A stretch of DNA of 64,000 nucleotides from Thermoleophilia bacterium (GTDB taxonomy: Bacteria; Actinomycetota; Thermoleophilia; BMS3ABIN01): the NCBI GenBank assembly GCA_014874265.1, contig JACWAM010000018.1:5955-69954 (forward strand), written 5' to 3'. Below the pieces are notes generated by a model. That model was not told where the DNA came from. It made no database searches and was given only the letters and a program-made list of their open reading frames with translations. Each line of letters begins with the position of its first letter. Position 1 is the stretch's first letter. The position numbers and the translations under genes were made by a program. Positions 11,071 through 63,264 of this stretch are shown here, piece by piece.

Positions 11071-11108
11071 AGCTGCTCTGGTTTGAGTGGCAAAGATGCT
11101 CGCACCGC

Positions 11109-11149
11109 AGCTCATCTCCTCTGACCCGTCGGGCAGGATGAGCTTTTTT
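11109..11149 (+). terminator. intrinsic terminator (riboswitch expression platform)
   Basis: agctcatctcctctgacccgtcgggcaggatgagct followed by TTTTT. Long GC stem with a T-run. Confidence 0.75.
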
Positions 11150-11218
11150 ACGCTCCCATCGGGAAGCCAAGCGCAAGCAAAGCAGCGACGCGGTTTGTCC
11201 ATTGAGCTGGCAGGAACA

Positions 11219-11650
11219 ATGGACAACGCAGGCAAAACAGGCACAAGAACAGGTAGCAACGGCAGATATCAGGCTTTGGTGCCAATGCTCATCTTGCTCG
11301 CTTGCGTTTGGCTTGTTCCGGCAGGGGGCGCCCTGGCGGTGTCTTCTCCCTCTCAAAGCGGCTCTACCAGTGTTTCCGTTACCGTCAGGGATGCTGTTTT
11401 TGTCAATGCTGCCAATCCCCTGCTCAGCGCTCCGCATGGATCACAAAAGCTTCAGATCACCACAACAATCGTCACCCGGACGGCATCCGGCTGTCACGAG
11501 ACTCAGTTGAAATCAGCAGGAGAGGCAGGACTCCCAATCGGGCAAGAGGCAGTCTCGGCCGCCGGAGCCGTCCGGGGCGGCTGCGCCCACCCAATGGCCG
11601 GATCGGCGTCCGGACCAACCGAGGTTTTTGTTACGGTGACGATGCTCTAA
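11219..11650 (+). CDS. small secreted protein of unknown function (Sec signal peptide; Ser/Thr/Val-rich beta-type mature region, two Cys)
   Basis: MDNAGKTGTRTGSNGRYQALVPMLILLACVWLVPAGGALA|VSSP... The track ORF 11087..11650 starts inside the riboswitch. ATG 11219 has AGGA 4 nt upstream; ATG 11285 is an alternative start. Confidence 0.45.
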   Translation: MDNAGKTGTRTGSNGRYQALVPMLILLACVWLVPAGGALAVSSPSQSGSTSVSVTVRDAVFVNAANPLLSAPHGSQKLQITTTIVTRTASGCHETQLKSAGEAGLPIGQEAVSAAGAVRGGCAHPMAGSASGPTEVFVTVTML

Positions 11651-19538: not shown

Positions 19539-20474
19539 TTAGATATCGCACACCTCATCCATCGGGACGTGGTGAGGCCTTTCCTTGCATAAGTCTACTT
19601 CGCCGGCATAAACCTGGTTTTTGCCGAACTTCTTCGCTTTATACATACGGGCGTCGGCTATCTGCACCAGCCGGTCGGCCAGATCGGCATCGCGGCCGAA
19701 AGTGGCAATTCCAATCGAAACAGTGATGCTGCGCTTGATATTGGGATCGGCAAAGGTCGAGCACCGTTCCTCAATGCTGGCGCGGAGGCGCTCGGCTACC
19801 CGGAATGCGGTCTCAAATTTGCAGCCCAGGATCAGGGTAAACTCCTCGCCGCCGTAGCGGGAGGCGATGTCTTCGCCACGCGCCTCGAGCTGGATTGTCC
19901 GGGCTACTTTCTGGAGCACGTAATCGCCTTCCTGGTGGCCGAACTGGTCGTTGTATTCTTTGAAATCATCAATGTCGAGAAAGAGCACCGTCAGCCGCGT
20001 GCCGTCGGTTTTCAGATTGCTCACTTTATTGACCAGGTAAGTCTGAAAAAAGCCATGTGTGTAGAGATTTGTCAAATCATCGGTAGTGGATTGCCGTCTC
20101 AGTTTGAGGGCTTCCACGTGTTCCGTAGTGAACATATAGTAAAAGCCGGTAACGAAAAGTATCACGAAGACGGCCTCGATGGATTCGTATAACCCTTCGA
20201 TTTCAAGGCCGCCAAGTTCCCGGAGGGCGCCGATGACCTCGGCGATGCCGAAGGTCATGGCCGCCAGGCTGAGAAATAGCCATGATCTTTTTCTGATGTC
20301 GAGGGAGATGCCGGGAAGCACTCTAATGGCGAAATAAAAGGCAACCAGCGCCCCCGTCATGTTAAACACCTCAATCATTGCCGGAAAAAGCTCTTCCTGC
20401 CTTCCGGCCGCTTCGGCAACGTCGCGTCCGCCAAAACCCGCAAGCAGTGCATTTATGTGAAATAAAATACTCAT
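19539..20474 (-). CDS. membrane-anchored diguanylate cyclase (GGDEF)
   Basis: Motifs RYGGEEFTLIL and QEGDYVLQKVA after an N-terminal multi-TM region. Confidence 0.85.
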   Translation of the reverse strand: MSILFHINALLAGFGGRDVAEAAGRQEELFPAMIEVFNMTGALVAFYFAIRVLPGISLDIRKRSWLFLSLAAMTFGIAEVIGALRELGGLEIEGLYESIEAVFVILFVTGFYYMFTTEHVEALKLRRQSTTDDLTNLYTHGFFQTYLVNKVSNLKTDGTRLTVLFLDIDDFKEYNDQFGHQEGDYVLQKVARTIQLEARGEDIASRYGGEEFTLILGCKFETAFRVAERLRASIEERCSTFADPNIKRSITVSIGIATFGRDADLADRLVQIADARMYKAKKFGKNQVYAGEVDLCKERPHHVPMDEVCDI

Positions 20475-24890: not shown

Positions 24891-25565
24891 TCATACCCTT
24901 TTTCTGATCATGAATTTCATCTGGCCGCCGAATTCTTCCCGGCAGATAAACTCGTTTCCAGTCCCAGTGCACCATGCCGGTATATCAGCTTTGGAACCTT
25001 CATCGTCGGCCCACACTTCCAGGATCTCCCGGTGCCGCAAATTCCTCATCTCCTCCGCAATCCTGACAATCGGCAGCGGGCAGGAGTACCCAATACAGTC
25101 GAGCTTTCGGCTCGGGGTTTCGCCGGCCGCCGGGCCTGTTTTCAATCCCGGGCCGAGCCGGCCGGAGATTACATCTTTCAGGCTGGTTTTGCCCAGCACA
25201 TCTTCGCTCACGCTTTGCAGCCTTGACCAGACCCCGGCCAGAGTGCAGCCATCATGGAAATCGCAGCCATCAACTGCTCCTCCGGCGCCGCAACTTGTAG
25301 GAACAACCGGGCCTTGCAAAACATTGACGACCTTGAGCAGGCTGATTTGCTCGGGAGCCTTTCCCAGCAAATAACCTCCCGCTGGTCCCCGTGTGCTTTT
25401 CAGCAGGCCGCCACCCACCAAAGCCCTGAGAACCTGTGTCAGAAACGGCAAAGGTATCCGCTGCCGCTCAGCAATGCCGGTTCGACCAACCGGCTCGCTG
25501 CCTTCGCGAGTAGCAATATCTATCAGGGCCCGCAGGCCGTATTCGCTTTTTGATGAAATCAGCAC
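24891..25565 (-). CDS. Rrf2-family (IscR-like) transcriptional regulator fused to a C-terminal TusA-like sulfur-carrier domain
   Basis: Rrf2 N-terminus (V)LISSKSEYGLRALIDIA with Cys ligands SCGAGGAVDGCDFHDGC. C-terminus LDCIGYSCPLPIVRIAEEM...ILEVWADDEGSKADIPAWC...FMIRK aligns with E. coli TusA (CPxP motif). Start uncertain: GTG 25565 or ATG 25604. Confidence 0.65.
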   Translation of the reverse strand: MLISSKSEYGLRALIDIATREGSEPVGRTGIAERQRIPLPFLTQVLRALVGGGLLKSTRGPAGGYLLGKAPEQISLLKVVNVLQGPVVPTSCGAGGAVDGCDFHDGCTLAGVWSRLQSVSEDVLGKTSLKDVISGRLGPGLKTGPAAGETPSRKLDCIGYSCPLPIVRIAEEMRNLRHREILEVWADDEGSKADIPAWCTGTGNEFICREEFGGQMKFMIRKRV

Positions 25566-25869
25566 GGGATAAAGTTTAATAATGTAGACCGTGTGAGTCA
25601 ACATTAATCAGGCCATTTATACCCGGTGGCTTCATTGGTCAAACAGTTTACTGTCTGATAAGACAGCTAAATATAAGGGATCCTTATGTTGGAATAATGT
25701 GTTTTTTTTGCGGGTGATTTATCAATCGGCATGGCTGGGGGCTGATTTTGGCCCGGGGAAAACTCCCGGATTATCCAGTTCTTTGCCAAGGCCTGACGCG
25801 ATATTCCCAAAGCCGGGCCAGCCCGGAGTCTGTCCAGCAGTTATCCCGCTGTGGCAGGCAGAACTTTTG

Positions 25870-37867: not shown

Positions 37868-38824
37868 ATGAGAACTGTCGAAACCGGGGCAAAAACCATA
37901 GTTGATGATGTAACTGAACTGATAGGCAACACGCCGATGATCAGGTTACGGCGGCTTGGCGGGGATCAGGCCGGCATGGTCGTGGCGAAGCTTGAGAGTT
38001 TTAATCCGGGTGGCAGCGTCAAGGACCGGATCGGGATTGCCATGATCGAAGCGGCCGAGCACGACGGCAAGATCGTGCCCGGCCAGACCGTCATAATCGA
38101 ACCCACTAGCGGCAACACCGGCATCGCGCTGGCGTTCGTCTGCGCCGCCAAAGGTTACCGTTTAATCCTGACCATGCCCGAAACTATGAGTATTGAGCGG
38201 CGGTCCCTTCTGAAGGCGTTCGGCGCCGAGCTGATTCTAACCCCGGGCCCGGGGGGCATGCGTGGAGCAGTGGAAAAAGCCGAGGAGTTAATCGGCCTTT
38301 ATGATGACGCATTCGTGCCGCAGCAGTTCAATAATCCCGCCAATCCAGAGGTGCATCGGCAATCGACCGCAGAGGAAATCTGGCGTGACACGCAGGGCGC
38401 CGTCGACATCTTTGTGTCGGCCGTCGGTACCGGCGGCACCATTACGGGTGTTGGCGAAGTGATCAAGGAAAGAAAACCCTCCGCGAGGGTAATCGCCGTG
38501 GAGCCCAAGGCGTCGCCGGTGCTTTCCGGCGGCGAAGCCGGACCGCACCGGATTCAGGGCATCGGCGCGGGCTTTGTTCCGGATGTGCTCAATACCGGAA
38601 TTTATGATGAGGTTGTCCAGGTGAGTAATGAAGAGGCCGAGCAGATGGCCCGGCGGCTGGCGCTCGAGGAAGGACTGCTCTGCGGTATCTCCTCAGGGGC
38701 GGCTGCTTTTGGAGCGCTCACGGTTGCGCGCCGGCCCGAAAATAAGGATAAAATGACGGTAGTCCTTCTTCCGGACACGGGAGAACGATATCTGACCACG
38801 CAATTGTTTGGCGATGCCAGATAG
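37868..38824 (+). CDS. cysK: cysteine synthase (CysK/CysM-type PLP enzyme)
   Basis: 318 aa with PLP lysine GGSVKDR and SGNTG. CysK vs CysM cannot be assigned. Confidence 0.85.
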
Positions 38825-38877
38825 GAACGGCGCCCGGGCAGGCGGTTTCTTCAAGGCAATTCCTGCGGGAGGTAGAT

Positions 38878-39117
38878 TTGAATATCAAGGAGGATTTCCT
38901 GCTGGACGCACGCGGTCTCAAGTGCCCCATGCCTTCGGTAAAGACCGCCCTCGCGCTTGAGCAGCTGGGCGGGGGCGGGATTGTCAAGGTGATGATTGAC
39001 GATCCGGTAAGTAAAAAGGATCTGCCGGCGTGGGTGCGCGGAAACGGCCACCAGGTGTTAGGCATTGACGACCGGGATGGTTTTGTTGAGGTATACGTTA
39101 AAAAATCCGGAGGTTAG
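38878..39117 (+). CDS. tusA: TusA-like sulfurtransferase
   Basis: 79 aa, LDARGLKCPMPSVKTALALEQL, CPxP motif. Confidence 0.8.
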   Translation: MNIKEDFLLDARGLKCPMPSVKTALALEQLGGGGIVKVMIDDPVSKKDLPAWVRGNGHQVLGIDDRDGFVEVYVKKSGG

Positions 39118-39118
39118 C

Positions 39119-39448
39119 ATGAATCAACACCACCCCGGTTCAAAAAAGGAAGACAAGCTGTTAGAATTAGAAGACAGGCCGCCGTTGGCGGCTTCTGCTC
39201 TTCATCTGGTCGTGCAAGGGCGGGAGAAGGTTTATCTTGGTCCCCGGGATATGCGGTCTTTGCTGGAAGCTCTGGGCGAGAACCTGTCATACGCCAATGT
39301 GCGTCTCAACGGCACGGTCCTAAACAGGCGGGATTTTGAAAATATCCCTTTGCAAGACGGGGACAGAGTAGATTTCCTTTATTTTATGGGAGGGGGAAGT
39401 TGTTCGATCTCTCCGAAGCTGAAATCGAGCGTTACTCCAGGCATATAA
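39119..39448 (+). CDS. ThiS/MoaD/CysO-like sulfur-carrier protein with an encoded C-terminal tail beyond Gly-Gly
   Basis: ...VRLNGTVLNRRDFENIPLQDGDRVDFLYFMGGG-SCSISPKLKSSVTPGI*. The beta-grasp core ends GGG and the frame runs 18 codons further, overlapping the moeB start. GGAGG RBS precedes ATG 39119. Confidence 0.6.
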   Translation: MNQHHPGSKKEDKLLELEDRPPLAASALHLVVQGREKVYLGPRDMRSLLEALGENLSYANVRLNGTVLNRRDFENIPLQDGDRVDFLYFMGGGSCSISPKLKSSVTPGI

Positions 39449-40230
39449 TCCTGCCCGAGCTGGGTGGCGCGGGGCAGCAGAAACTGAAACAGGCGAGCGT
39501 CCTTGTGGTTGGCGCCGGCGGGCTTGGATCTCCGGCGCTGCTTTACCTTACCGCGGCGGGAGTGGGCCGGATTGGCGTCATCGAGGACGACGTTGTCGAT
39601 TTGACCAATCTTCAGCGCCAGGTTCTACATGGCACCTCTGACGTGGGACGGCCGAAGGTGGTCAGCGCCAGCGAGACGATGAAACAGCTCAACCCGCATG
39701 TCCAGATCGATGTTTACAATCAACGCCTCACCAAGGAAAACATTTTTGACATCATTGAAAAATATGATGTTATTGTCGACGGCGTTGATAACTTTCCGAC
39801 GCGTTACCTTTTAAACGACGCCTGCGTCATGAAGCAGAAAACGCTGGTGGAGGGCGGCATACTCCGCTTTATGGGACTGATCATGAGTATTCGCGGTGGC
39901 GAGACCGCCTGCTACCGCTGCGTTTTTGAGGATCCACCTCCGCCCGGAGCTGTGCCCAGTTGCGCTGAAGCTGGAGTCCTGGGCGCGGTCGCCGGCGTGG
40001 TCGGGACCATGCAGGCCACCGAAGTGCTCAAAATTCTGACTGGATTCGGGCAGCCGCTTTATGATCGGCTACTCCAATTCGACGCCGAGGAGCTCCGTTT
40101 CCACGAGGTTAAGGCAAGGCGCAATCCAAAATGCCCGGTTTGCGGCGAAGATCCCAGTATTACCGAGCTCATCGAGTATGAATACACCTGTGAAACCCAG
40201 ACTCCGCTAGCTGATGCCGGGGGGGATTAA
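39400..40230 (+). CDS. ThiF/MoeB-type E1-like adenylyltransferase (no rhodanese domain)
   Basis: TTG start after RBS ggaggggga. (M)FDLSEAEIERYSRHIILPELGGAGQQKL...VGAGGLGSP with C-terminal CxxC...CPVC Zn site. Confidence 0.8.
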   Translation: MFDLSEAEIERYSRHIILPELGGAGQQKLKQASVLVVGAGGLGSPALLYLTAAGVGRIGVIEDDVVDLTNLQRQVLHGTSDVGRPKVVSASETMKQLNPHVQIDVYNQRLTKENIFDIIEKYDVIVDGVDNFPTRYLLNDACVMKQKTLVEGGILRFMGLIMSIRGGETACYRCVFEDPPPPGAVPSCAEAGVLGAVAGVVGTMQATEVLKILTGFGQPLYDRLLQFDAEELRFHEVKARRNPKCPVCGEDPSITELIEYEYTCETQTPLADAGGD

Positions 40231-40651
40231 TCTTACCCGCTCCCAGCTCGAGGCTGTTTTTGAGCACGCGAAGCGGCAGCAGCCTGAAGAAGCATGCGGT
40301 ATTCTCGCGGGCGATCCGGACGGAAGCGTGCGCCGCGTCTTTTTGATGGAGAACGCCGAGCACAGCTCGATCCTGTATATGATGGACTCGACCGAGCAGT
40401 TCGAGGTTTTTGATCAGATGGAAAAGGATGGCCTTGAACTGGTCGCCATCTTTCATTCTCACCCCCACTCTCCCGCCTTTCCCTCTGCCCGCGACTTGGA
40501 ACTGGCTTTCTATCCGGAATCGCTATACCTGATCGTGTCTCTCATGGATGACGAGCCTCAGTATCATGCCTTCAGGCTCGCCAGAGGCCAGGTTGCTGAA
40601 GCCCCGCTGGTTATTCTGGATGATATAAAAGAGAGCCTTGATGAAGCCTGA
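40214..40651 (+). CDS. JAMM/MPN+ metalloprotease (Mec+/CysO-processing type)
   Basis: EACGIL...HSHPHSPAFPSARD, the JAMM motif. Confidence 0.75.
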   Translation: MPGGINLTRSQLEAVFEHAKRQQPEEACGILAGDPDGSVRRVFLMENAEHSSILYMMDSTEQFEVFDQMEKDGLELVAIFHSHPHSPAFPSARDLELAFYPESLYLIVSLMDDEPQYHAFRLARGQVAEAPLVILDDIKESLDEA

Positions 40652-41477
40652 AACCGGGCCGGCTGGCGCTGCAAATGATTTAAACCGGCTCATTCTTGCC
40701 ATCAAGCCGCTGGATAGCCTGGCGGTGGGATTCTCCGGCGGAGTCGATTCATCGGTAGTGGTAGCCGCTGCGGTTGAAGCGTTGGGAGCGGGAAATGTGG
40801 TGGCCGTTACCTCAGCCTCGGAGACCTTGCCGGCCCGGGAGATGAAAGCAGCCCGCCATCTGGCCCGGAAAATCGGATGCCGCCACGAAATCATCCGGAC
40901 CGGCGAGCTTGAGATGAATGAGTTTGCCGCCAACCCTCCCGACCGCTGTTACTATTGCAAAACGGAGCTGTGGAAACAGGTTAGGAAAATCGCTTCGGAA
41001 TTGGGGCTAAAGAATATTGCTGACGGCGTCAACGCCTCCGATTTGGGAGACTTCCGTCCCGGGATCAGGGCCAGCGACGAATGCGGCGTCGCGCACCCGC
41101 TCGCGGCGATCGGCGCCGGCAAGGAGCAGGTCCGTGGCATCGCCCGGGAGCTGGGCCTTCCCAACTGGGGCAAGCCCGCCGAGGCATGCCTTTCATCCCG
41201 CTTTCCTTACGGTAACACCATTACGGCCGCCGGCCTCAAGCGCGTGGAGCGGGCCGAGGAACTGCTCAAGGAGAACGGGTTTAGGCAGCTGCGCGTTAGA
41301 GACCACGGGGACATCGCCCGCATTGAGGTGCCGCCAGAGGTGTTTCATAAACTGACGAATGGCAGCAGATCAGAAATTGTAAAAGGACTCAAGGAACTTG
41401 GTTATAGCTACGTTACCGTTGACCTGGAAGGGTTCCGGAGTGGCAGCATGAACGAAACGCTAAAAAACAGTTCATAG
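40638..41477 (+). CDS. LarE-like PP-loop ATP pyrophosphatase (TIGR00268 family)
   Basis: SGGVDSS PP-loop, then DRCYYCK...ACLSSRFPYG. Confidence 0.65.
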   Translation: MMKPETGPAGAANDLNRLILAIKPLDSLAVGFSGGVDSSVVVAAAVEALGAGNVVAVTSASETLPAREMKAARHLARKIGCRHEIIRTGELEMNEFAANPPDRCYYCKTELWKQVRKIASELGLKNIADGVNASDLGDFRPGIRASDECGVAHPLAAIGAGKEQVRGIARELGLPNWGKPAEACLSSRFPYGNTITAAGLKRVERAEELLKENGFRQLRVRDHGDIARIEVPPEVFHKLTNGSRSEIVKGLKELGYSYVTVDLEGFRSGSMNETLKNSS

Positions 41478-46224: not shown

Positions 46225-46662
46225 TCAGCGGCAATCCCAAGATTCCTGCTCCAGCTTCTCTCTTAGAGCCGCCTTTGCTTCGCTGCCCTGCCTGAGCAGC
46301 TTCACTTCCGCTTCCAGGTTGGAAGGTTTCATCCGCAAGATCCAGCCGGCTCCGTAGGGATCCTCATTGATGAGGCCTGCCTTGGTCCGCAGATTCTCGT
46401 TTATCTCGATGATCTTGCCGGAGAGCGGCGCGTGAACCGGACCGACATACTTCCCGCTTTCGATGATGGCGACGCGCTTGCCCATTGAAACATCGTCGCC
46501 GATTTCGCGTGGCCGGAGAAAAAGAATGTTGCCGGCAATATGCTGGCCGACATCGGTCAGCCCGGCGGTGACGTTGCCGTCGTCATCAAACCGGACCCAC
46601 ATCTGATCCTCGACGTCGTAAAGGATTCCGTCTTCGGGAAAAACGCAGCCCTCTATTTCCAC
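46225..46662 (-). CDS. glycine-cleavage H-protein-like (lipoyl-carrier, LbpA-like) protein
   Basis: 145 aa, GTG start, AIIESGKYVGPVHAPLSGKII (GcvH lipoyl-Lys region). Stand-alone with no gcvT/gcvP nearby. Confidence 0.65.
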   Translation of the reverse strand: MEIEGCVFPEDGILYDVEDQMWVRFDDDGNVTAGLTDVGQHIAGNILFLRPREIGDDVSMGKRVAIIESGKYVGPVHAPLSGKIIEINENLRTKAGLINEDPYGAGWILRMKPSNLEAEVKLLRQGSEAKAALREKLEQESWDCR

Positions 46663-46726
46663 CTTGCTCCCCCTTGCTGTAACCCGGCAAAGCCTTGCGA
46701 ATCAAAAAATCCAGACAAACGAAAAA

Positions 46727-46755
46727 ATTCTATTCCTGGAGCGGGTTCTTGTCAA
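46727..46755 (-). promoter_or_regulatory. sigma-A-type promoter TTGACA-17-TAGAAT for the gcvH-like gene
   Basis: Minus strand ttgacaagaacccgctccaggaatagaat. Confidence 0.5.
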
Positions 46756-46842
46756 TTGACGTGTTGTTACCCGTATCGACCGAGATTGGCGCCCGGCTCG
46801 CCCGTCCGGTAGGTCAGGGCCCCTCCTTCCCGGGTTTTTGGA

Positions 46843-47184
46843 TCACATGCCGGGCCGGGCTCCAAGCGAGGCGCGGCGGCGTTTATCCGCCCGTATTTGT
46901 GGATCGTCGTCAAGCCACCCGATAAGCAGGGCCAGGACTGCGGGGGCATACCGGTTCTGCTTGCTGCTGCTTAAGACGTACCATACCCTGCGTCCGTCCC
47001 GCCTGCGGGTGACCAGCCCGGCGCTACTCAAGACCGCCAGGTGACTTGAGACAGTTGACTGGCGGGCCCTGATAACGGCCACCATCTGGTCAACCGTGAG
47101 CTCGCCGCCTTCCAGCAGCTTTAAAATCCTGACCCTCGTGGGATCGCCTGCGGCTTTCATAACCTGTTCAAATTGCCGGATCAA
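46843..47184 (-). CDS. ArsR/SmtB-family transcriptional regulator (no cysteines)
   Basis: 113 aa, TTG start, GDPTRVRILKLL...LTVDQMVAVIRARQSTVSSHLAVL. Confidence 0.8.
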   Translation of the reverse strand: MIRQFEQVMKAAGDPTRVRILKLLEGGELTVDQMVAVIRARQSTVSSHLAVLSSAGLVTRRRDGRRVWYVLSSSKQNRYAPAVLALLIGWLDDDPQIRADKRRRASLGARPGM

Positions 47185-47283
47185 GGTTGCTCCGGTCTGG
47201 AATTGCCATTATTCCAGGCAGCATCATAATATAAAATGCTATTATATCGATTTTTATCGATGCTTAAAATCATGCTTAATGAA

Positions 47284-47307
47284 ATACATCGTTGTAAAAC
47301 GATGTAT
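47284..47307. promoter_or_regulatory. perfect 10-4-10 palindrome ATACATCGTT-gtaa-AACGATGTAT in AT-rich ArsR upstream region (candidate operator)
   Basis: Seen directly. Lies between the tandem repeat and a TATAAT-like box upstream of the ArsR gene. Confidence 0.5.
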
Positions 47308-47355
47308 TATTTCAGAGAGAATAACTGCTCGCTCAGCATAGCCAACAACATATCA

Positions 47356-47395
47356 AGTGCGGGGATTGACGAGATAGTGCGGGGATTGACGAGAT
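47356..47395. repeat. perfect tandem duplication 2 x 20 bp (agtgcggggattgacgagat)
   Basis: Seen directly. Lies between the dsrE-like stop and the arsR promoter. Confidence 0.8.
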
Positions 47396-47443
47396 ACGGC
47401 CGAGCGAGGACGAAGCGCAGCAAGAGGACGTTCGGGAGATCAG

Positions 47444-47827
47444 TTAAAAATACATTACCTTGTCGGCTTCCATAACGGCTTCGATGATCGCGGCAGCCCC
47501 CCGCATTTCGCAACCATCGATGAGATCATCCATGGTTAGATCTTCCGCCTCCATGGCTTGGGCGCATACCATGAATTTCACGCTGTCCCGCCGGGCGCGG
47601 TCCAGCCAGGTCCTTAAATTGACACCGCTATCAGGGACAAGCTCAATTTTTTCTGCCGTCTCCCTTCTCAGAATTGTTACCCCTTCCATCATGAACCAAA
47701 TGGAAGCCTCGATGTCCATCGCTACCGCTGTAATGGCAAGATAAAGAGGAGCATAGGTTCTTTTTGGCTCCCTGATGCCACTGGTTTGAATTATCAGGAT
47801 AGACTGCTTCTCTATGGATGCTTCCAC
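47444..47827 (-). CDS. DsrE/DsrF-like family protein
   Basis: 127 aa, SILIIQTSGIREPKRTYAPLYLAITAVAMD...FMVCAQA with a conserved Cys. Confidence 0.7.
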   Translation of the reverse strand: MEASIEKQSILIIQTSGIREPKRTYAPLYLAITAVAMDIEASIWFMMEGVTILRRETAEKIELVPDSGVNLRTWLDRARRDSVKFMVCAQAMEAEDLTMDDLIDGCEMRGAAAIIEAVMEADKVMYF

Positions 47828-48154
47828 CGGACATCCTCTGCAGTTGCGGACCGGTTTTTATGGTTTTTATCGCTGCCCAGATGTTCGCAGTTTTGTTGCG
47901 GCCCAAACTGAATTTAGCACCCTCCGGCAATCAATGTCAACCAGACAGGACAATGGGGCGACTATTTGGCCAGACCGGAAAATGATCGACCGGAACGTGG
48001 CATTAAATGAGCTGATGGGATGATTTTGACGGTTGTTTCGCTCAATGAGCGTCACCACCGTTGATCACGCTACCCGGTTTGACTGTGACGGGATCGCCTG
48101 ATATCTTTTTTCCTGGAAATTGACGGGGCCGGGTGCCTTTTTCTTCTATCTCGG

Positions 48155-48335
48155 CAGGTAAACCTGCTTGGATGGAGTTCTAAGGAGAATAGGGAAGCCG
48201 GTGCAAATCCGGCGCGGGCCCGCCGCTGTAACCGGGAATCATCCCCTTAGTTACGTCACTGGACGCAAGTCTGGGAAGGCGGGGATTGTCGAAACCCGGG
48301 AGCCAGAAGACCTGCCCGGCAAACTGTAAATGCCG
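48155..48335 (+). promoter_or_regulatory. cobalamin (AdoCbl-type) riboswitch aptamer
   Basis: aatAGGGAAGCCGGTGCAAATCCGGCGCGGGCCCGCCGCTGTAACCGGG ... GTCACTGG ... GGGAAGGCGG ... GAGCCAGAAGACCTGCCCGG. B12-box and flanking conserved blocks are present; this does not match the TPP consensus. Confidence 0.75.
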
Positions 48336-48377
48336 CTCTTCGTGGACGGAGAGGACCGGCTGGCCGGTCTGACTGAT

Positions 48378-48405
48378 AACCCCATGCCTGCGGCGTGGGG
48401 TTTTT
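48378..48405 (+). terminator. intrinsic terminator of the riboswitch expression platform
   Basis: aacccca-tgcctgcggcg-tggggtt followed by TTT. RBS GAGGAGG then ATG 48445 follows. Confidence 0.6.
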
Positions 48406-48444
48406 CGTTCCGAGAGGGCGGCGCTGAACGAGGAGGAAGAAGAT

Positions 48445-49719
48445 ATGGCTACACAATTGGAACGGGCCCGGGCGGGCATTATTACAACAGAAATGGAGAA
48501 GGTGGCAGCTGAGGAGGACCTGTCGCCGGAGCAGATCCGGCAAGGCATGGTTGATGGTTCAATCGTGATTATCAGCGGGAACGGCCGCGCTGAAACCGCC
48601 ACCGGGATTGGGAGAGGCTTAAGAACGAAGGTCAATGCCAGTATTGGCACCTCATCCGACCTGATCGACATTGAGATGGAGCTGGAAAAGGCGGCTGTCG
48701 CGGCGGATACGGGCGCCGATACGCTCATGGAGCTAAGCACCGCCGGCGATCTTGATGATGTTCGCCGGCGCGTCCTGGCCGCAGTTTCCGTGCCGGTGGG
48801 AAATGTCCCTCTGTACCAGGCCAGCGCCGAAGCTGCGGCCAGTCTGGGCTCGAATCTGAAGATGACGGAAGATCTTCTGTTTGAGTTGGTGGAAAGGCAG
48901 TCAGCCGATGGTATCGGTTTCATGGCGATCCACTGTGGTATTAACCGGCTGACGCTAAGCGTCCTCAAGTCGCAAGGAGGGCGCAGCGGCGGTCTGGTAA
49001 GCCGTGGCGGGGCGTTTATGTCGGCATGGATGCAGGCGACTGATTCAGATAACCCGCTTTACGAACAATTTGACCGTCTGATTGAAATTCTGCATCAATA
49101 TGACGTCGTGCTGAGCCTGGGCAACGGCATGCGCGCCGGCGCCGTTAGCGACGCTACCGACAAGGCACAGATCCAGGAGTTAATCATCAACTGTGAACTG
49201 GCGGACCGGGCTCGGGACGCCGGGGTACAAGCGATGCTGGAAGGTCCCGGTCATATCCCCATCGACGAGATCAAGGCCAATGTCATCCTGGAGAAGAAGA
49301 TGAGCGGCGGCAAACCGTTTTATATGCTGGGGCCGATCACGACTGATGTCGCTCCTGGATATGACCATATTACGGCGGCTATCGGGTCTGCCTGGGCAGC
49401 CGCCTACGGTACGGATTTCATCTGTTACGTGACGCCAGCCGAGCACCTGGGCCTCCCCTACCCTGACGATGTGCGCCAGGGGGTCATGTCGTCCCGGATT
49501 GCCGCTCACGTGGGCGATATGATCAAGCTGGGCCGCCGCCAGGCGGATTACGAAATGGGCAAGGCCCGGCGGGATCTGGATTGGGAGAAGCAGTTTGCGC
49601 TGGCGCTTGATCCGGAGCAGGCCCGTTCGGTTCGCGATGCGCGCCCCGGCTCCGGCAGCGAGGGCTGCAGTATGTGCGGCGATCAGTGCGCTTTAAAGGT
49701 CGGAGAAGCCGCCTGCTAG
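48445..49719 (+). CDS. ThiC-family radical-SAM enzyme; candidate 5-hydroxybenzimidazole synthase (BzaF-like) rather than thiamin ThiC
   Basis: 424 aa ThiC fold with C-terminal CSMCGDQC Cys cluster. Preceded by a cobalamin riboswitch. Confidence 0.6.
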   Translation: MATQLERARAGIITTEMEKVAAEEDLSPEQIRQGMVDGSIVIISGNGRAETATGIGRGLRTKVNASIGTSSDLIDIEMELEKAAVAADTGADTLMELSTAGDLDDVRRRVLAAVSVPVGNVPLYQASAEAAASLGSNLKMTEDLLFELVERQSADGIGFMAIHCGINRLTLSVLKSQGGRSGGLVSRGGAFMSAWMQATDSDNPLYEQFDRLIEILHQYDVVLSLGNGMRAGAVSDATDKAQIQELIINCELADRARDAGVQAMLEGPGHIPIDEIKANVILEKKMSGGKPFYMLGPITTDVAPGYDHITAAIGSAWAAAYGTDFICYVTPAEHLGLPYPDDVRQGVMSSRIAAHVGDMIKLGRRQADYEMGKARRDLDWEKQFALALDPEQARSVRDARPGSGSEGCSMCGDQCALKVGEAAC

Positions 49720-49752: not shown

Positions 49753-49785
49753 GAAAGGGCGGATATTCAATCCGCCCTTTCTTAA
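49753..49785. terminator. hairpin gaaagggcgga-tattcaa-tccgccctttc between the convergent ThiC-paralog and dsrE-like genes
   Basis: 10-bp stem followed by a TTTCTT tract; usable on both strands. Confidence 0.6.
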
Positions 49786-49819: not shown

Positions 49820-50287
49820 TCAGATAAACAGGCTCATGTCGGCATCGACGGCGTAATCAAGGAACGCGCCGGCGCCACAGGTCGGCTCTACTTCATCAAT
49901 CAGATCTTCGGGATTAATGCCCATGATGTCGAGCGTCAGCTGACAGGGCCACATTTTGACACCGGTTTCATGACATATCTCGATAAATTCAGGGATAGAC
50001 GGCGTGTTTGACTTCTTGATCATATCCTTCATCATCTTGGTTGCCATCGCCGTCATGCCAGGAAGCATACCAACAATGTTCGGCACGGACACTGGCATCG
50101 CTGGATTGGCGATTGGCGACACCTTTAGGTTGGCATATTTCTTTTTGTTGACAATATCCAGCCCGTAAAAAGTGAAAAAGATGCCGCATTCCATGTCCAG
50201 CGCCGCGGCGGTGCTAGCCAGGATAAATACCGGGTACGCCATATCCAGCGTTCCCTTGGACGCGATAATCGCTAAACGCTTAGCCAT
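49820..50287 (-). CDS. DsrE/DsrF-like family protein (COG2044-type)
   Basis: 155 aa, MAKRLAIIASKGTLDMAYPVFILASTAAALDMECGIFFTFYGL. Confidence 0.65.
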   Translation of the reverse strand: MAKRLAIIASKGTLDMAYPVFILASTAAALDMECGIFFTFYGLDIVNKKKYANLKVSPIANPAMPVSVPNIVGMLPGMTAMATKMMKDMIKKSNTPSIPEFIEICHETGVKMWPCQLTLDIMGINPEDLIDEVEPTCGAGAFLDYAVDADMSLFI

Positions 50288-50295
50288 CTAGTAGC

Positions 50296-50550
50296 TCACT
50301 TCCCTTTCCGAACAAAGAAGTGAAATACTTCACCGCCTTCTTCTTCAGTGAAGCCCAGAAACTCGTTACCCGACCTTTTTGCCCACGCCGGCATATCCCC
50401 CTTCGAACCGGCATCAGTACCGATTACCTCGAGCACCTGGCCGGGTTCAAGAGCGTCCATCGCCTTTTTTGCCTTCACTACCGGCATCGGGCAACACAGC
50501 CCCTTTACGTCAAGAACAGAATCCGGCTTTACATCGATTGTCTCTGCCAT
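50296..50550 (-). CDS. tusA: TusA-like sulfurtransferase
   Basis: MAETIDVKPDSVLDVKGLCCPMPVVKAKKAM, CPxP motif. Start chosen at MAETID, the internal Met of track ORF 50296..50580. Confidence 0.8.
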   Translation of the reverse strand: MAETIDVKPDSVLDVKGLCCPMPVVKAKKAMDALEPGQVLEVIGTDAGSKGDMPAWAKRSGNEFLGFTEEEGGEVFHFFVRKGK

Positions 50551-50918
50551 TATTCCTCCCAGGTGGTTGAAATTAAACATCTATTGGACGCCAGAAAACT
50601 GAAAAGGGTCCAATAATGACCGGCCGTTTATCATAAAATATTTTTGGCCCTAATTACCACCTCCTCCAGGCCGGTTTTTTTACTGATAGTTAAGAAACAC
50701 TGAACATTTCCTGTTATCGTTCGATTCGGGCACAGCGACTGGCAGTTGGATAGATGGATTATTTTTTATTATATCATAGCCATTTGCAGGCAAATTGTCG
50801 CAAGAGCTTACTCAGGGAGTCGGGAAATTTAACTAAAGTTAATTTATCATATCTGGCAATTTTGAAGCTTTGGGCTATAATTCATATGCACGGGGTTAAT
50901 TTGAGTGAGGGGATAGGA

Positions 50919-58526: not shown

Positions 58527-59411
58527 CTACTGGCTCCTGCCCTCTCTAATCCGTGCTTCACGGGCAGCTCTCTCTGCCACCTCGCGCGCCCGCTTCTCAT
58601 CAACGGCGCGGCGCTGTTCCTCGGCCAACTGAGGCTTCAGCCTGAGCTGCTGCGATATGCCTAACATATACTTGATGTAATCGAAAGCAAAGTGCATTAG
58701 CTCAATCTCGTCATTTTTAATTTTTTCCAACCGCTCGGGTTCGACATCGAATATCTCCAGGAAGCGGCTTTCTAGCACGTAACGTCTAAAAGCATCGATA
58801 TCATAACTTGCCAGGTAGAACATTTTCTGCCGGCGCTCCCGGTCTTCATCTTCACGCGGAAGGTTTTGCTTCATCATGATATTCTTCCATTCAAGATTAA
58901 GCTCGTCTGCGCGGGCAGCCTCCTGATCTTCTCGCCATTTCCCAATCGTCCATTGCCGGTCTTCGTCAAAGCCGCGGCAGTGATCCTCCTTGATGATCAC
59001 ATAAAACTCCTGATGGACCGGATCTTCATCCTCTTTTTCACTGGCTGTCCGATGTGTCGCCTGCCCAACCGGGTAGTAACGGCAGGCGGCCGGCCGGTCC
59101 GTATAGATGCGGCAGCCCTCTTTCTCCGCGACAAAGGGACAAAGTTTTTGATCATCTTCGTTCATTTTAATGAAGACGAGCGGATGGGTGGTTTTTTCGT
59201 CTTCCCGATAGCGGGTGTACCGGGCCAGAAACTCAGTGCTGCTCAGTCCCAACCGGTTTTTCATTCGGATGACATCATGTGGCGTCAGCAGCAACTCAAT
59301 ATTGCGGCAGCAGCGGGTAAAGCATGAGATGCCCGGATAGCACCGGAAATTGAACTCCGATTCCAATTCGAATTTAGCCGGTATGACTGATTTGTTGTTT
59401 AGGGAAACCAT
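58527..59411 (-). CDS. YkgJ-like Cys-cluster (putative Fe-S/Zn) protein with charged C-terminal coiled-coil
   Basis: FNFRCYPGISCFTRCC...CPFVAEKEGCRIYTDRPAACRYYP, then an Arg/Glu-rich C-terminus. Confidence 0.5.
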   Translation of the reverse strand: MVSLNNKSVIPAKFELESEFNFRCYPGISCFTRCCRNIELLLTPHDVIRMKNRLGLSSTEFLARYTRYREDEKTTHPLVFIKMNEDDQKLCPFVAEKEGCRIYTDRPAACRYYPVGQATHRTASEKEDEDPVHQEFYVIIKEDHCRGFDEDRQWTIGKWREDQEAARADELNLEWKNIMMKQNLPREDEDRERRQKMFYLASYDIDAFRRYVLESRFLEIFDVEPERLEKIKNDEIELMHFAFDYIKYMLGISQQLRLKPQLAEEQRRAVDEKRAREVAERAAREARIREGRSQ

Positions 59412-59513
59412 AACTTGTCTTACCTATTGTAAAGCATTTTGCCGCAAAAAAACGCGGGCGGCCGCATCTTAGGCAGGACCCGCCCGCAGTCAGATCTTCT
59501 AAAAAAGAAGAGC

Positions 59514-60863
59514 CTACATAGGCGTGTCGCGCCCGGCTGTGCGGGCAAAAGCCATTGCTGTTGCCCTATAAACCATGTGTGACATTTTTGAGAAAGGAGC
59601 ATAAATGAACAGGAACATCACCAGAGAGAGGTGTATGAAGTAAGTGGGATAAGCCAGCACACCGATATCCCCCAGGCGGAAGGCGGCCGAACCGATCCCG
59701 GTGATCATCAGGAGGGCGATGACAATGATGAGCAGCCAGTCAAAATAACTGCCGAGACCCACCTTAACCTGATGTTTAAAGCGGTTGATCATGATTAAGC
59801 CGATGCCGATGATGCCGGCGATGGCGCCAGAGTAGCCAAACAGCTTTACCACACTGATGGTTGGATAGGGCGAGACAGAGCCGGTTCCACCCCAAAGCAG
59901 GGGAAAATCGGTAAAGACAGTAGAGGCGATCGTGGCCAGGAAGAGCAGTACGAAAGCATAAAGGATGAACAGATGCGATATCTTGCGGTCCTTGGTCTCA
60001 TCGCATTTGCCGAAGCGCTTGTGCACGGCGATCTCGCTGATCACGGGCCCCACCTGCGCCGCGCCACTGCCAGTAACGGGGCTCCCCTCTTCAGTGGCGT
60101 GCCGCTTCATCATCACCCAGTAATTGCGGATTCCCATGGCAAAGACGATGATCGAGATGACAAAGAATGTGCTAAAGACACCAACTATCGACCAGTGTCC
60201 GAGCAGCTGGCCGTAAACTATTTGCCCGGCATGCTCAAGCTTGCCGTCGACAATCTCTCCCCGCGGAGGATTGAAATGTCCCAGCAGGCCGACTGCCAAA
60301 CCGACGATGATCAGCGGGATGGCGGCCATGATGGCGATCATAGACGGGTTGCCAACGCCCTTGGCCAGAAAACCCGGCTTTGATAAAGAAGGAATCGACA
60401 TCTTGGCGACCGCCTGCATCACTCTGCCAGGCTTCGCGTCGCGCGGACACTGCGCGGTGCAATCATTGCACTGATGGCATAACCAGATATCAGGATCGGC
60501 AACCAGTTTATCTTTCAGGCCCCATTGCGCCCAGATCATCTCTTTCCGGGGGAAGGGATGATCATCGGGTGTGATGTTACAGACGACGGAGCAGGTCGCG
60601 CACTGGAAACATTTCTTCAGATCGGTGCCACCGGCGCCGATGACCTCGCGCACGAACTGGATGTCGGGTTCAATGCTCCTGGCCGGAGCCGCTACCGGTG
60701 CAGCGGCAGCCTCTGCCGTGGCCTCATCGCCCGAGGTTTCAGCCTCAGCCGAAGCAGCGCTTTCGTCTGTCGCCACCGCAGTCGTGCCCTCAGCCTCAGC
60801 GCTTGCCTTGGGCGCTTCAGCGCCGGTCGATTCTTCGTTGTTTTCTACTGACTCGTCCGCCAT
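59514..60863 (-). CDS. qmoC: QmoC-like membrane subunit (HdrC-like ferredoxin domain + heme-b-type HdrE/NarI-like TM domain)
   Basis: Acidic Ala/Glu/Thr-rich N-terminus, then CFQCATCSVVC...CHQCNDCTAQCP (2x[4Fe-4S]), then 5-6 TM helices with conserved His. Confidence 0.65.
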   Translation of the reverse strand: MADESVENNEESTGAEAPKASAEAEGTTAVATDESAASAEAETSGDEATAEAAAAPVAAPARSIEPDIQFVREVIGAGGTDLKKCFQCATCSVVCNITPDDHPFPRKEMIWAQWGLKDKLVADPDIWLCHQCNDCTAQCPRDAKPGRVMQAVAKMSIPSLSKPGFLAKGVGNPSMIAIMAAIPLIIVGLAVGLLGHFNPPRGEIVDGKLEHAGQIVYGQLLGHWSIVGVFSTFFVISIIVFAMGIRNYWVMMKRHATEEGSPVTGSGAAQVGPVISEIAVHKRFGKCDETKDRKISHLFILYAFVLLFLATIASTVFTDFPLLWGGTGSVSPYPTISVVKLFGYSGAIAGIIGIGLIMINRFKHQVKVGLGSYFDWLLIIVIALLMITGIGSAAFRLGDIGVLAYPTYFIHLSLVMFLFIYAPFSKMSHMVYRATAMAFARTAGRDTPM

Positions 60864-60873
60864 CTCATCCCTC

Positions 60874-63264
60874 CTAAAATCCCTTGAACGGATTGGGCCC
60901 GAATTCCTTCAGTTTTTCGGCAAAGTCCTCCATGATCCGCGGCAACTGGTCCCATTCATTGAGAGCCAACTGGATCTGCGAGACACGCTCCGATTCCAGC
61001 ATGAGCCGCCCCAGCGTTTCCTGGACCTTGCCCAGGCGTTCATTGGCCGCCTTGCTCCCCTTGACAAAATGACACTGATAATCGTCATCGTAGCGGCAGC
61101 CGATCAGGAGGAACCCTTCGATTCCCGCCGAAAGCGCGTCGGCGATCCAGACCAGGTTTGTGCCACCCAGGCATCTCATCGTAATAAACCTGTAAAACGG
61201 GCTAATATTCAGACGGTTGAGCCCGGCTATATCGATAGCCGGATAGGCGTCATTTTCACAGATAAGGGCGATGATTCGCGGCTTGCTGTCTTCTTCCGGA
61301 ACCTTGACGGCTTTCATCTGCGAAGCGATCATCTCGACGCTGTAGTTTTTAAAGGAAATGATCCTTTGCGGGCACGCGCCCATACAGGTGCCGCAGCGGC
61401 GGCAGCGGTAGGTATTTGTCTTTGGCGTACCGTTCTCTTCCTCATCCAGGACGCCGAACGGGCATTCAACCGTGCAACGTCGGCACTGGGTGCAGTTGGT
61501 GTAGTTGATCTCCGGGAATGACTGGTCGCCAGCGCGGGGATGTACCCCCATGCCCTGGGAAGCCAGCTCCAGCACCTGGATGGCCTTGAGAGCAGCTCCT
61601 TTGCCATCGTTGACGGACTGCATCGCGGTCATCGGATGTCGTACGGCGCCGGCGGCGTAGATGCCGGTGCGGCGCGTTTCGTATGGAAAGCAGACAAAGT
61701 GAGAATCGGGATAGCCATATTTCAGGTACGGCATCTCCGGCCCCTGGCGGTACTCGAGGTTAAGCACCACCGGATCGGCGACGACTTCTTTGATGACGCC
61801 GTCAACCGTCTTGGTTTCCCGCCACTGACCGACATACTCAGGCGTCAGGTCATTCACGCCCTCAATATGCGCCGGCAGCGAGTTGGTCATCATGCCGGTG
61901 GCCAGCACCAGCATATCAGCCACAATCATCACCTTCTCACCCAGGATCGTGTTGTCGATTTCGAGGATGATATTGCCCGATTCGTCCTCGGTGATACTGG
62001 TCACCTCACCCTTGGTGAGCATGACTCCCGGGTTGTTTTGAGCTGATTTATAAAACTCCTCGTAGAGTCCAGGCGTCCGCATATCCTTGTAAATGATAAA
62101 CGCCGCTGCATCGGGATTGCCTTCAGTCACATAAAGGGCCTGTTTCAGTGAGGTCAGGCAGCAGACCGAAGAGCAATACGGCAGATGCTCGGGGTCGCGC
62201 TGGCCGGCACATTGAAGAAACGCCACCCGGGTGGCCTTCTGGCCGTCCGAGGGGCGCGCGATGACGCCGTCGCCGTCAAGGGCGATTTGCTCCACCTCCA
62301 CATTCGTGACAACGTTCTTGAATTTGCCGTAGCCGAGGTTTTCCAGCCGGTTGGCGTTATAAGGCTTCCAGCCGATCGCCAGCACAATGCTGCCGATATT
62401 GATGGTTTCCGAACTGCCGTTGCTGTTTACGGTAACCTCATATTTCCCCGGTTCACCGGCGGTCTTCTCAATGGCAGCTCCGGTAATCACGCGAATCTTG
62501 TCGCTGGCCTCAACAGCGTTGATCTTGTTCTCAATATCCGGTTTGCGGGTTTCGGCAAAAGGCATCTTGTCCGGCATGATCTTGTACATCTTTTTAGCCC
62601 AGCCACCCAGTTCGGCCTCTTTTTCGATCAGGATCACGTCGTAGCCTGCATTTGCCGATTCTAGGGCGCTGGACAGGCCGGTGGGCCCGCCGCCGACGAC
62701 AAGGATGGTTTTGTTAATGTCTTCGATGTGCGGCTCCGGCGGCTCGCTCGCCCTCGCCCTGACAATTCCCATCCGGAGATGGTCTTCGGCCATCTCCTGC
62801 GTATTCTCGTTAATTGCCGGCGCTGCCGCTTCAGTCTCAGCTTCTTCTGATGCGTCAGTTCCTGCGCCTTCTGCGTTTTCCGGGGCTGTTTCCGCGGCCG
62901 CTTCTGCTTCGGCGGGAGTTTCCTCACCGGCAGCGGGCTCTACTTCCTTTTGTGCGGGCGGATTTTGCGTCCAGATGATGTGGTCTCTCAGGTTAACCCG
63001 CTCGGTGACGTACTTGAGCGGATCAAAATCAAAAATATCAGTGTTGTGGCGCATAGAACACGCGCCTATCACTATGGTATTGACGCCCTCATTGTTTATG
63101 TCATCCTTGATCATTTGCGCCCCTTCCTGATTGCAGAGGAAGGGAGTGCTTTTGACGACATCCGCCTTGTACTCATTGGTGGCGATGTTCTTTAATGCCT
63201 CGATATCAAGCGCTTCGCCGAGGCCGCAATCGGAACAGATGTAGACGCCGATCTTCTTTTCCAT
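60874..63264 (-). CDS. qmoB: QmoB-like subunit (HdrA-like FAD/Fe-S protein with MvhD-like domains)
   Basis: 796 aa with FAD motif VVGGGPTGLSSAL, CSSVCC, two ferredoxin motifs CTQCRRCTVECP/CRRCGTCMGACP, and MvhD-like domains at both ends. GGGAGG RBS. Start codon overlaps the qmoA stop (TAATG). Confidence 0.7.
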   Translation of the reverse strand: MEKKIGVYICSDCGLGEALDIEALKNIATNEYKADVVKSTPFLCNQEGAQMIKDDINNEGVNTIVIGACSMRHNTDIFDFDPLKYVTERVNLRDHIIWTQNPPAQKEVEPAAGEETPAEAEAAAETAPENAEGAGTDASEEAETEAAAPAINENTQEMAEDHLRMGIVRARASEPPEPHIEDINKTILVVGGGPTGLSSALESANAGYDVILIEKEAELGGWAKKMYKIMPDKMPFAETRKPDIENKINAVEASDKIRVITGAAIEKTAGEPGKYEVTVNSNGSSETINIGSIVLAIGWKPYNANRLENLGYGKFKNVVTNVEVEQIALDGDGVIARPSDGQKATRVAFLQCAGQRDPEHLPYCSSVCCLTSLKQALYVTEGNPDAAAFIIYKDMRTPGLYEEFYKSAQNNPGVMLTKGEVTSITEDESGNIILEIDNTILGEKVMIVADMLVLATGMMTNSLPAHIEGVNDLTPEYVGQWRETKTVDGVIKEVVADPVVLNLEYRQGPEMPYLKYGYPDSHFVCFPYETRRTGIYAAGAVRHPMTAMQSVNDGKGAALKAIQVLELASQGMGVHPRAGDQSFPEINYTNCTQCRRCTVECPFGVLDEEENGTPKTNTYRCRRCGTCMGACPQRIISFKNYSVEMIASQMKAVKVPEEDSKPRIIALICENDAYPAIDIAGLNRLNISPFYRFITMRCLGGTNLVWIADALSAGIEGFLLIGCRYDDDYQCHFVKGSKAANERLGKVQETLGRLMLESERVSQIQLALNEWDQLPRIMEDFAEKLKEFGPNPFKGF

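Follow-up and report, generated by a model that had tools for sequence, protein, structure and literature searches.

A cobalamin riboswitch upstream of a candidate BzaF-type 5-hydroxybenzimidazole synthase gene in an uncultured Thermoleophilia bacterium

A 64,000-nucleotide stretch of contig JACWAM010000018.1 from a Thermoleophilia bacterium (hereafter, the window) carries a ThiC-family gene directly behind a cobalamin riboswitch. The locus very probably forms a single-gene unit, in which a promoter, the riboswitch, an intrinsic terminator and a ribosome-binding site (RBS) lead into a BzaF-type ThiC paralog. ThiC paralogs preceded by cobalamin riboswitches are the known signature by which the Bza genes were discovered. 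The preliminary description of this DNA had proposed a BzaF-type product, and an active-site signature, a clade with 99% bootstrap support and the presence of the riboswitch in 12 of 12 loci of the window's subclade all argue for this predicted identity. The locus is an incremental addition to a known system, not a new mechanism; it is notable for the phylum in which it occurs, its stand-alone arrangement and the misannotation that it brings to light.

Cobalamin riboswitch and expression platform

An Rfam scan of the whole window placed RF00174 (Cobalamin) at 48139-48333 on the forward strand, with a score of 112.7 bits (gathering score 31.5, E = 1.9e-27). The alignment covered the whole model (positions 1-189 of 189), and the aptamer is thus full length. 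It was the only cobalamin riboswitch in the window. The earlier claim of such a riboswitch in the leader is borne out by this highly significant covariance score; the start given for it, 48155, lies within the RF00174 match, but the match begins 16 nt earlier. When 47800-48500 was rescanned at E ≤ 10, the same RF00174 match was returned together with three noise matches. No aptamer for thiamine pyrophosphate (TPP) was found in the whole window at gathering scores, and RF00059 had no match in 47800-48500 even at E ≤ 10, in agreement with the reported lack of TPP-aptamer motifs in the leader.

The sequence blocks listed in the preliminary description were all present between 48192 and 48316. Read from the sequence, the conserved blocks of the aptamer are:

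48192-48203, GGGAAGCCGGTG
48206-48212, AATCCGG
48222-48231, GCCGCTGTAA
48273-48281, GGGAAGGCG
48301-48316, AGCCAGAAGACCTGCC

The name "B12 box" had been put on GCCGCTGTAA; we take it normally to denote AGCCAGAAGACCTGCC. The aptamer core was invariant in eight aligned homologous leaders. Between the end of the aptamer, which is on the same strand as the gene, and the ATG there are 111 nt. Compared with the RF00174 class, it is full length, has all conserved blocks and is followed by an expression platform of the terminator type, with nothing unusual in the aptamer itself; the window's subclade differs from the class in an extra invariant segment after the aptamer, GCCGCUCUUCG, which is able to pair beyond the terminator.

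The remaining elements of the leader are as follows, all on the forward strand:

48079..48107, +, sigma-70-like promoter candidate, TTGACT-17 nt-TATCTT with TG before the -10 element (consensus scan, pattern match only)
48332..48370, +, start of the expression platform, comprising segment GCCGCTCTTCG and two hairpins
48336-48353, +, hairpin CTCTTC/GGAGAG (minimum-free-energy folds)
about 48353-48370, +, second platform hairpin (minimum-free-energy folds)
48378..48409, +, intrinsic terminator with an 11-bp G+C-rich stem, a 3-nt loop and a T-rich tract (hairpin scan)
48430..48436, +, RBS GAGGAGG, 8 nt before the ATG (read from sequence)

The promoter candidate lies about 30 nt upstream of the aptamer. 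Segment GCCGCTCTTCG (48332-48342), followed by GGA, was invariant in 8 of 8 aligned leaders. It can also pair with CGAGAGGGCGGC at 48411-48422, beyond the terminator, and 11 leaders retain this helix, with a single compensatory change among them. The terminator hairpin, which the preliminary description had also placed after the aptamer, spans 48378-48402, forms 11 pairs and runs into TTTCGTT (-18.7 kcal/mol). Its arms can pair with the aptamer core at 48276-48290 (-13.7 kcal/mol) and 48215-48230 (-17.9 kcal/mol); speculatively, such pairings might act as an antiterminator.

The subclade to which the window belongs comprises proteins of 71-97% identity from metagenome-assembled genomes (MAGs) labelled Actinomycetes, Thermoleophilia, Gaiellales or Actinomycetota. 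Upstream DNA was available for 12 loci: the window, L001-L007, L081, L084, L086 and L088. RF00174 was found directly upstream of the gene in all 12, with its end about 100 nt from the start codon and scores of 95-125 bits. In every one of the 12 leaders an equivalent hairpin and T tract, with differing stem sequences, was located between the aptamer and the RBS, and RBS-like purine runs occupied the same place in related leaders. As the pairing of RNA and gene is kept at 71-97% identity across differing neighbourhoods, this constitutes strong evidence that the riboswitch regulates the BzaF-type gene of the window.

From this arrangement we infer a ligand-responsive OFF switch. When cobamide is plentiful, the bound aptamer would let the terminator form and transcription would stop before the gene, and when cobamide is scarce, transcription would read through. 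Biosynthetic genes that follow riboswitches of this class are usually switched off in this way. Together, the riboswitch and a gene of BzaF type would provide end-product feedback on lower-ligand synthesis.

Active-site signature and phylogenetic position of the protein

The gene and the codons that are discussed below are:

48445..49719, +, ThiC-family radical S-adenosylmethionine (SAM) enzyme of 424 aa, BzaF type, predicted 5-hydroxybenzimidazole synthase (PF01964, identity, clade and profile score)
48640..48642, +, codon of Ser66, position of Asn228 in Arabidopsis ThiC (AtThiC) (alignment: Ser in 79/79 BzaF-type, Asn in 10/10 ThiC sequences)
48925..48927, +, codon of Ala161, AtThiC Thr320 position (alignment: Ala in 79/79 versus Thr in 10/10)
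49120..49140, +, motif GNGMRAG, residues 226-232, with Asn227 at AtThiC Asp383 and Ala231 at Pro387 (alignment)
49666..49689, +, C-terminal [4Fe-4S] cluster motif CSMCGDQC, residues 408-415, with C408/C411/C415 in C-x2-C-x3-C spacing (sequence)

The protein matched PF01964 (ThiC_Rad_SAM) with 594 bits. Its active-site residues were compared in an alignment of proteins from 80 related loci (one genome per species, best match 82%) with Caulobacter and Arabidopsis ThiC taken from Protein Data Bank (PDB) alignments. At AtThiC positions 228/320/383/387, all 79 sequences at least 56% identical to the window protein had Ser/Ala/Asn/Ala, and the other ten, which are ThiC sequences, had Asn/Thr/Asp/Pro (GDG[LM]RPG), so that the split was without exception. 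The ten comprise the two crystallised ThiCs and sequences from Phosphitispora, an Actinomycetota MAG and Methanosarcina. In ThiC, Asn228 hydrogen-bonds the 3'-OH of 5-aminoimidazole ribotide (AIR) and Asp383 hydrogen-bonds N3 of its imidazole (PMC4389238, PMC11117688), and both residues are strongly conserved among ThiC orthologs (PMC11117688). The residue corresponding to AtThiC D383 is Asn in BzaF (PMC12661338). In the published BzaF hidden Markov model (HMM) of Shelton et al. 2019 (PMC6461909), nodes 225-232 carry GNG[LM]RAG, and over nodes 222-231 the BzaA HMM from the same study keeps Asp and Pro (..AD.MRPG). The BzaB representative P0139 (TIGR04386, 733 bits) has GDAIRPG, VNALIG and a Leu at AtThiC position 228. 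Since Asp and Pro are kept in ThiC, BzaA and BzaB, the GNG[LM]RAG motif is specific to BzaF among the four paralog groups.

The residues that bind phosphate, SAM and metal are kept in the window protein (Y124, H163, S186, R187, G188, R230, E266, H270, Y293, C327, E333 and H334), and with these ligands intact it should be an active enzyme. A search of the PDB with the window protein returned only ThiC structures (best E = 1e-95) and no BzaF structure.

The cysteine motif CSMCGDQC had been described as C-x2-C-x3-C and was found so, but the spacing does not mark BzaF. It occurs in every short-form family member, ThiC and BzaF alike, and was rejected as a marker: ThiCs encoded in ThiD-ThiE-ThiC-ThiL clusters share it (CTMCGEFC in L072, CSMCGDYC in L073). 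The actinobacterial subclade (window 49666-49719; L001-L007) has CSMCGD[QR]C, with Gln or Arg before the third cluster Cys where known BzaF proteins have the aromatic Phe or Tyr. In addition, one more Cys is present among the final residues of proteins of this subclade (..GEAAC).

A distance-based neighbour-joining tree was built from 56 sequences, including 50%-identity cluster representatives from a library of 1.8 billion proteins. All sequences with Ser/Ala/Asn/Ala formed one clade with 99% bootstrap support, which includes the proteins of Geobacteraceae cob operons; neither the BzaB representative nor any Asp-type ThiC belongs to it. Support for the window's own subclade was 100%. The window protein thus falls outside bona fide ThiC, on the side that the preliminary description had predicted. 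It is 42-51% identical to verified or context-supported ThiCs, in contrast to 59-61% to BzaF-type proteins. Profile scores pointed the same way. Two home-made HMMs were trained, one on 56 bacterial sequences of BzaF type that lie outside the window's subclade and one on 17 ThiCs of the short form. The window protein scored 659.6 bits on the first and 554.7 on the second (+105), while the same comparison for the BzaB representative gave -78.

A tblastn search of 72,556 plasmids gave as best match WP_012471694.1 of Trichlorobacter lovleyi plasmid pGLOV01, annotated in RefSeq as 5-hydroxybenzimidazole synthase BzaF, which has 59% identity and is encoded beside cobT. The other 381 plasmid matches were at most 48% identical, and the annotated ones are thiC. 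A ThiC-annotated protein from a plasmid of G. lovleyi SZ, ACD97376.1, has an entry in the bzaF table of Shelton et al., with 648 bits against a cutoff of 564; it is presumably the same protein as WP_012471694.1 of pGLOV01.

Genomic context separates the two types of gene. Asp-type genes were found in ThiD-ThiE-ThiC-ThiL clusters (L072, L073). Asn-type genes of Geobacteraceae and Desulfuromonadaceae were found in CobU-CobT-X-PCC-CobS-CobC operons with a cobalamin riboswitch 1.8-2.3 kb upstream; the riboswitch-led loci with cob operons are L010, L027, L033, L040, L044 and L047. Other Asn-type genes stood directly behind a single cobalamin riboswitch (L060) or, in Nitrospirota, directly behind tandem ones (L014 80-506, L021 2446-2867, L024 2347-2830, L067 2324-2872). 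None of the 44 scanned loci had a TPP riboswitch. These separate contexts indicate that the two signatures mean two functions. In G. sulfurreducens, according to the passage of PMC7726332 that cites Hazra et al. 2015, BzaF is GSU3005, encoded in a cluster with cobU (GSU3010), and the organism makes 5-hydroxybenzimidazolyl cobamide.

The window protein shares PF01964, the short form of about 425-436 aa, the Ser/Ala/Asn/Ala signature, GNG[LM]RAG, C-x2-C-x3-C and cobalamin-riboswitch control with the known BzaF proteins, also called HBI synthases (GSU3005, the Desulfuromonas acetoxidans protein and T. lovleyi WP_012471694.1), and stands with them at 59-61% identity in the common 99%-bootstrap clade. 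In Geobacteraceae, however, bzaF lies in cob operons (cobU-cobT-bzaF-cobS-cobC or cobT-bzaF-methyltransferase) with the riboswitch at the operon head, whereas the window gene forms a monocistronic unit led by a riboswitch and terminator of its own, and cob genes are absent within 64 kb. With ThiC (3EPM, 4S25-4S29) it shares the family, the substrate-phosphate, SAM and metal ligands and the C-terminal cluster domain, and it passes ThiC cutoffs. It differs from ThiC in the replacement of Asn228, Thr320, Asp383 and Pro387, in identity, and in having a cobalamin riboswitch instead of a TPP riboswitch and no thiamine gene neighbours.

By homology, the enzyme would be a non-canonical radical SAM protein in which the C-terminal Cys408, Cys411 and Cys415 hold a [4Fe-4S] cluster, with a second metal site at His270/His334, and AIR would be bound through ThiC-like phosphate and ribose contacts. 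The altered contacts, Ser66 to the ribose 3'-OH and Asn227 to the imidazole N3, may steer the radical rearrangement. The product would then be 5-hydroxybenzimidazole, not the thiamine pyrimidine, as we infer from the Geobacter and Desulfuromonas enzymes, and would serve as a cobamide lower ligand or as its precursor.

Several further members of the family and further cobalamin riboswitches were observed. A clade represented by P0153 and P0154 has GNTMRSG at the Asp383 motif and EG[VM]GGH plus an insertion replacing EGPGH, and scores below the TIGR00190 cutoff. Paralogs of the Ser/Ala/Asn/Ala (BzaF-like) type were also present in archaea, namely in Methanosarcinaceae, Methanolobus and Methanomicrobiales MAGs (L062, L063, L068, L069), and Asp-type ThiC was present in Methanosarcina loci (L074-L078, L080); no riboswitch was found at any of these scanned archaeal loci. 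Methanogens use 5-hydroxybenzimidazolyl cobamide, which fits the BzaF-like paralogs in archaea. In a Nitrospirota MAG, a group II intron (domains D1-D4) lies directly downstream of the BzaF-type gene (L021 4489-4778). Plasmid pGLOV01 of T. lovleyi carries a tandem pair of cobalamin riboswitches before a TonB-dependent receptor (L089 9443-9909).

Annotation and alternative interpretations

Several points weigh against the BzaF-type assignment. The window protein passes the NCBIfam ThiC equivalog models NF009895 (585 versus 410) and TIGR00190 (565 versus 460). For the published BzaF HMM (Shelton et al. 2019) the trusted cutoff is stated as 564.1 bits, and the window protein, being about 60% identical to the seed group, could score near that value. 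The D383N variant of AtThiC keeps partial activity towards hydroxymethylpyrimidine phosphate (HMP-P) (PMC11117688), and for this reason Asn at the D383 site alone does not exclude ThiC chemistry. No cobT, cobS, cobU, cobC or cbi genes were found in the 64-kb window, and no cob or cbi genes were found within 10 kb in any subclade locus examined; the cob-gene context that supports the function in Geobacter is therefore missing here. The absence of cob/cbi genes from the window, which the preliminary description had noted, was upheld by Pfam scans of 36 open reading frames (ORFs), covering 47 kb directly, and by tblastn with CobU/T/S/C; for the remaining large ORFs, at about 37.8-43 and 50.7-57.6 kb, the lack of cob genes was deduced from synteny with L081, a 97% relative.

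The first of these points loses its force on comparison with a protein of known context. An Oryzomonas japonica protein encoded in a riboswitch-led cobU-cobT-X-cobS-cobC operon scores 597/557/540 on NF009895/TIGR00190/TIGR04386. Because this cob-operon BzaF-type protein scores nearly the same as the window protein, the NCBIfam ThiC cutoffs carry no weight. The NCBIfam library contains no BzaF or BzaA model, and its ThiC models do not discriminate; it was rejected as a ThiC/BzaF classifier. The same holds for names in databases. All named close relatives are annotated as phosphomethylpyrimidine synthase ThiC, and the BzaF signature was present in 132 of the 133 close database relatives fetched (P0001-P0133), the named ones all being called ThiC. 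As ThiC models accept BzaF-type proteins, these names carry no weight.

Among the alternatives, the best-surviving one, although unlikely, is an enzyme of the BzaF clade with a shifted role: one that forms a different product, that is bifunctional (HMP-P and 5-hydroxybenzimidazole), or that supplies a lower ligand for cobamide remodelling in a corrinoid salvager. It would account for a solitary gene that has a riboswitch to itself at all 12 subclade loci and is never beside cob genes, and for the subclade-specific CSMCGD[QR]C and extra C-terminal Cys; the residual HMP-P synthesis of D383N ThiC (PMC11117688) also speaks for it. Yet the protein matches Geobacter-type BzaF at all four signature positions and at every catalytic residue, cobalamin control is what would be expected for plain BzaF, and little weight attaches to the stand-alone position when no more than 64 kb of the genome is in view. 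Somewhat less probable still is a specific form of this idea: that the BzaF-type gene is the lineage's only ThiC-family gene and serves the thiamine pyrimidine too, or instead, with cobalamin controlling thiamine synthesis, or that it is a stand-alone module which remodels salvaged corrinoids in a non-producer.

It is improbable that the protein is a genuine ThiC, an HMP-P synthase that happens to sit under cobalamin control. Passage of both short-form NCBIfam ThiC equivalog models, the ThiC names of the close relatives and the partial HMP-P activity of AtThiC D383N (PMC11117688) are the points in its favour, but the models are passed equally by the protein of the cobU-cobT-...-cobS-cobC operon. 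Ser and Asn take the place of two conserved substrate contacts, N228 and D383 respectively, identity to ThiCs is lower than to BzaF-type proteins, a branch with 99% bootstrap separates the protein from ThiC, and neither a TPP riboswitch in the leader nor thiamine genes nearby were found. We know of no rationale for repression of thiamine synthesis by B12. A tblastn search of the window gave no homologue of ThiD or ThiL. A ThiE-like tblastn match at 6443-6619 was rejected, as it belongs to an OMPdecase/RraA fusion protein and not to ThiE.

BzaA and BzaB (bza operons of the Eubacterium limosum and Moorella types) are likewise ThiC paralogs downstream of cobalamin riboswitches and also make 5-hydroxybenzimidazole from AIR, but they do so as an adjacent pair and keep Asp383 and Pro387; bzaA and bzaB lie no more than 2 kb apart (Shelton et al. 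2019, PMC6461909, supplementary methods). That the window protein is a subunit of this Firmicutes-type two-protein synthase is highly implausible, despite its place behind a cobalamin riboswitch and its 543 bits on the BzaB model TIGR04386: the score (542.7 bits) is below the 700-bit cutoff, the positive control P0139, a true BzaB, scores 733 and shares only 46% identity with the window protein, the latter has GNGMRAG where the BzaA HMM over its nodes 222-231 keeps Asp and Pro, it is solitary and in a different clade, and tblastn found a single ThiC-family gene in the 64-kb window, with no adjacent partner of BzaA/BzaB type.

The assignment to BzaF has consequences for annotation. A systematic misannotation between ThiC and BzaF is exposed, in that the NCBIfam ThiC equivalogs accept BzaF-type proteins. 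Because BzaF-type genes are named ThiC, predictions of thiamine prototrophy and of cobamide lower ligands from genomes will be wrong for these organisms. In this data set a four-residue discriminator, Ser/Ala/Asn/Ala versus Asn/Thr/Asp/Pro at AtThiC 228/320/383/387, was clean; its short form is GNGxRAG versus GDGxRPG. If the BzaF-type assignment is true, anaerobic benzimidazole synthesis would extend to uncultured Actinomycetota (Thermoleophilia- and Gaiellales-like MAGs), and these bacteria would make or tailor cobamides of the 5-hydroxybenzimidazole type. The host of the window belongs to an uncultured lineage of Actinomycetota, a phylum missing from the bzaF carriers that the 2019 survey lists (Shelton et al., PMC6461909). 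A literature search for bzaF in Actinobacteria or Thermoleophilia returned nothing relevant.

Neighbouring genes and other features of the window

The elements closest to the riboswitch and its gene are:

47444-47827, -, DsrE (Pfam)
49753..49781, no strand assigned, 12-bp hairpin between the convergent BzaF-type and DsrE_2 genes (read from sequence)
49820-50287, -, DsrE_2 (Pfam)
50296-50580, -, TusA (Pfam)

The hairpin at 49753-49781 may serve as a terminator in both directions; its T tract is weak, and too short for the terminator scan to have called it. Further neighbours identified by Pfam were an ArsR-type regulator and a GcvH-like protein. The gene order UvrD - GcvH-like - ArsR - DsrE - [riboswitch and gene] - DsrE_2 - TusA is that of the window's sublineage and was kept in the window, L001-L004, L081, L084 (74%) and L086 (71%, with a 1042-aa gene inserted). 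L005-L007 and L088 have unrelated neighbours, with the riboswitch and gene still present. The flanking sulfur carriers of DsrE/TusA type named in the preliminary description were confirmed by Pfam, but the adjacency is conserved in one sublineage only and does not indicate a functional link. Such a link to the DsrE, TusA and GcvH-like neighbours was rejected: they are on the opposite strand, lie outside the riboswitch unit, and synteny is lost in L005-L007 and L088. We read the adjacency as inherited gene order.

The island of GcvH-like, DsrE, DsrE_2 and TusA genes occupies 46225-47827 and 49820-50580 of the window. In the 74% relative (L084 11362-16892) it goes on to include an LplA-B_cat/DUF116 ligase together with a pair of radical SAM proteins and one FAD protein. 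This GcvH-like/DsrE/TusA/LplA island resembles the lipoate-assembly set of sHdr/LbpA sulfur-oxidation systems. At about 37868-41477 (by synteny with L081 1-3028), the window has a CysO/CysM-like sulfur-carrier set, PALP-TusA-ThiS-ThiF-JAB-NAD_synthase. By this synteny, the ThiS and ThiF genes are part of a sulfur-carrier set and not of a thiamine cluster, though their names could mislead.

An Rrf2-type transcription regulator fused to a TusA sulfur-carrier domain is encoded at 24891-25604 on the reverse strand. A heterodisulfide reductase (Hdr)-like module at 58527-63264, also on the reverse strand, has three parts: at 60874-63264 an HdrA-like flavoprotein that carries a fused MvhD/FlpD domain, at 59514-60863 a protein of the ferredoxin type, and at 58527-59411 a CxxCxxCC protein. 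The presence of HdrA-MvhD-type genes in the window suggests a fit with an anaerobic lifestyle. A variant riboswitch of the c-di-GMP-I-GGC family (RF03167) was detected at 10987-11063 on the forward strand, with 69.8 bits against a gathering score of 59. It precedes a 187-aa ORF at 11087-11650 for which there was no Pfam match, and genes for GGDEF proteins (12522-13538, 19539-20474) and for a HAMP-GAF-HD_5 protein (20538-23009) lie near it.

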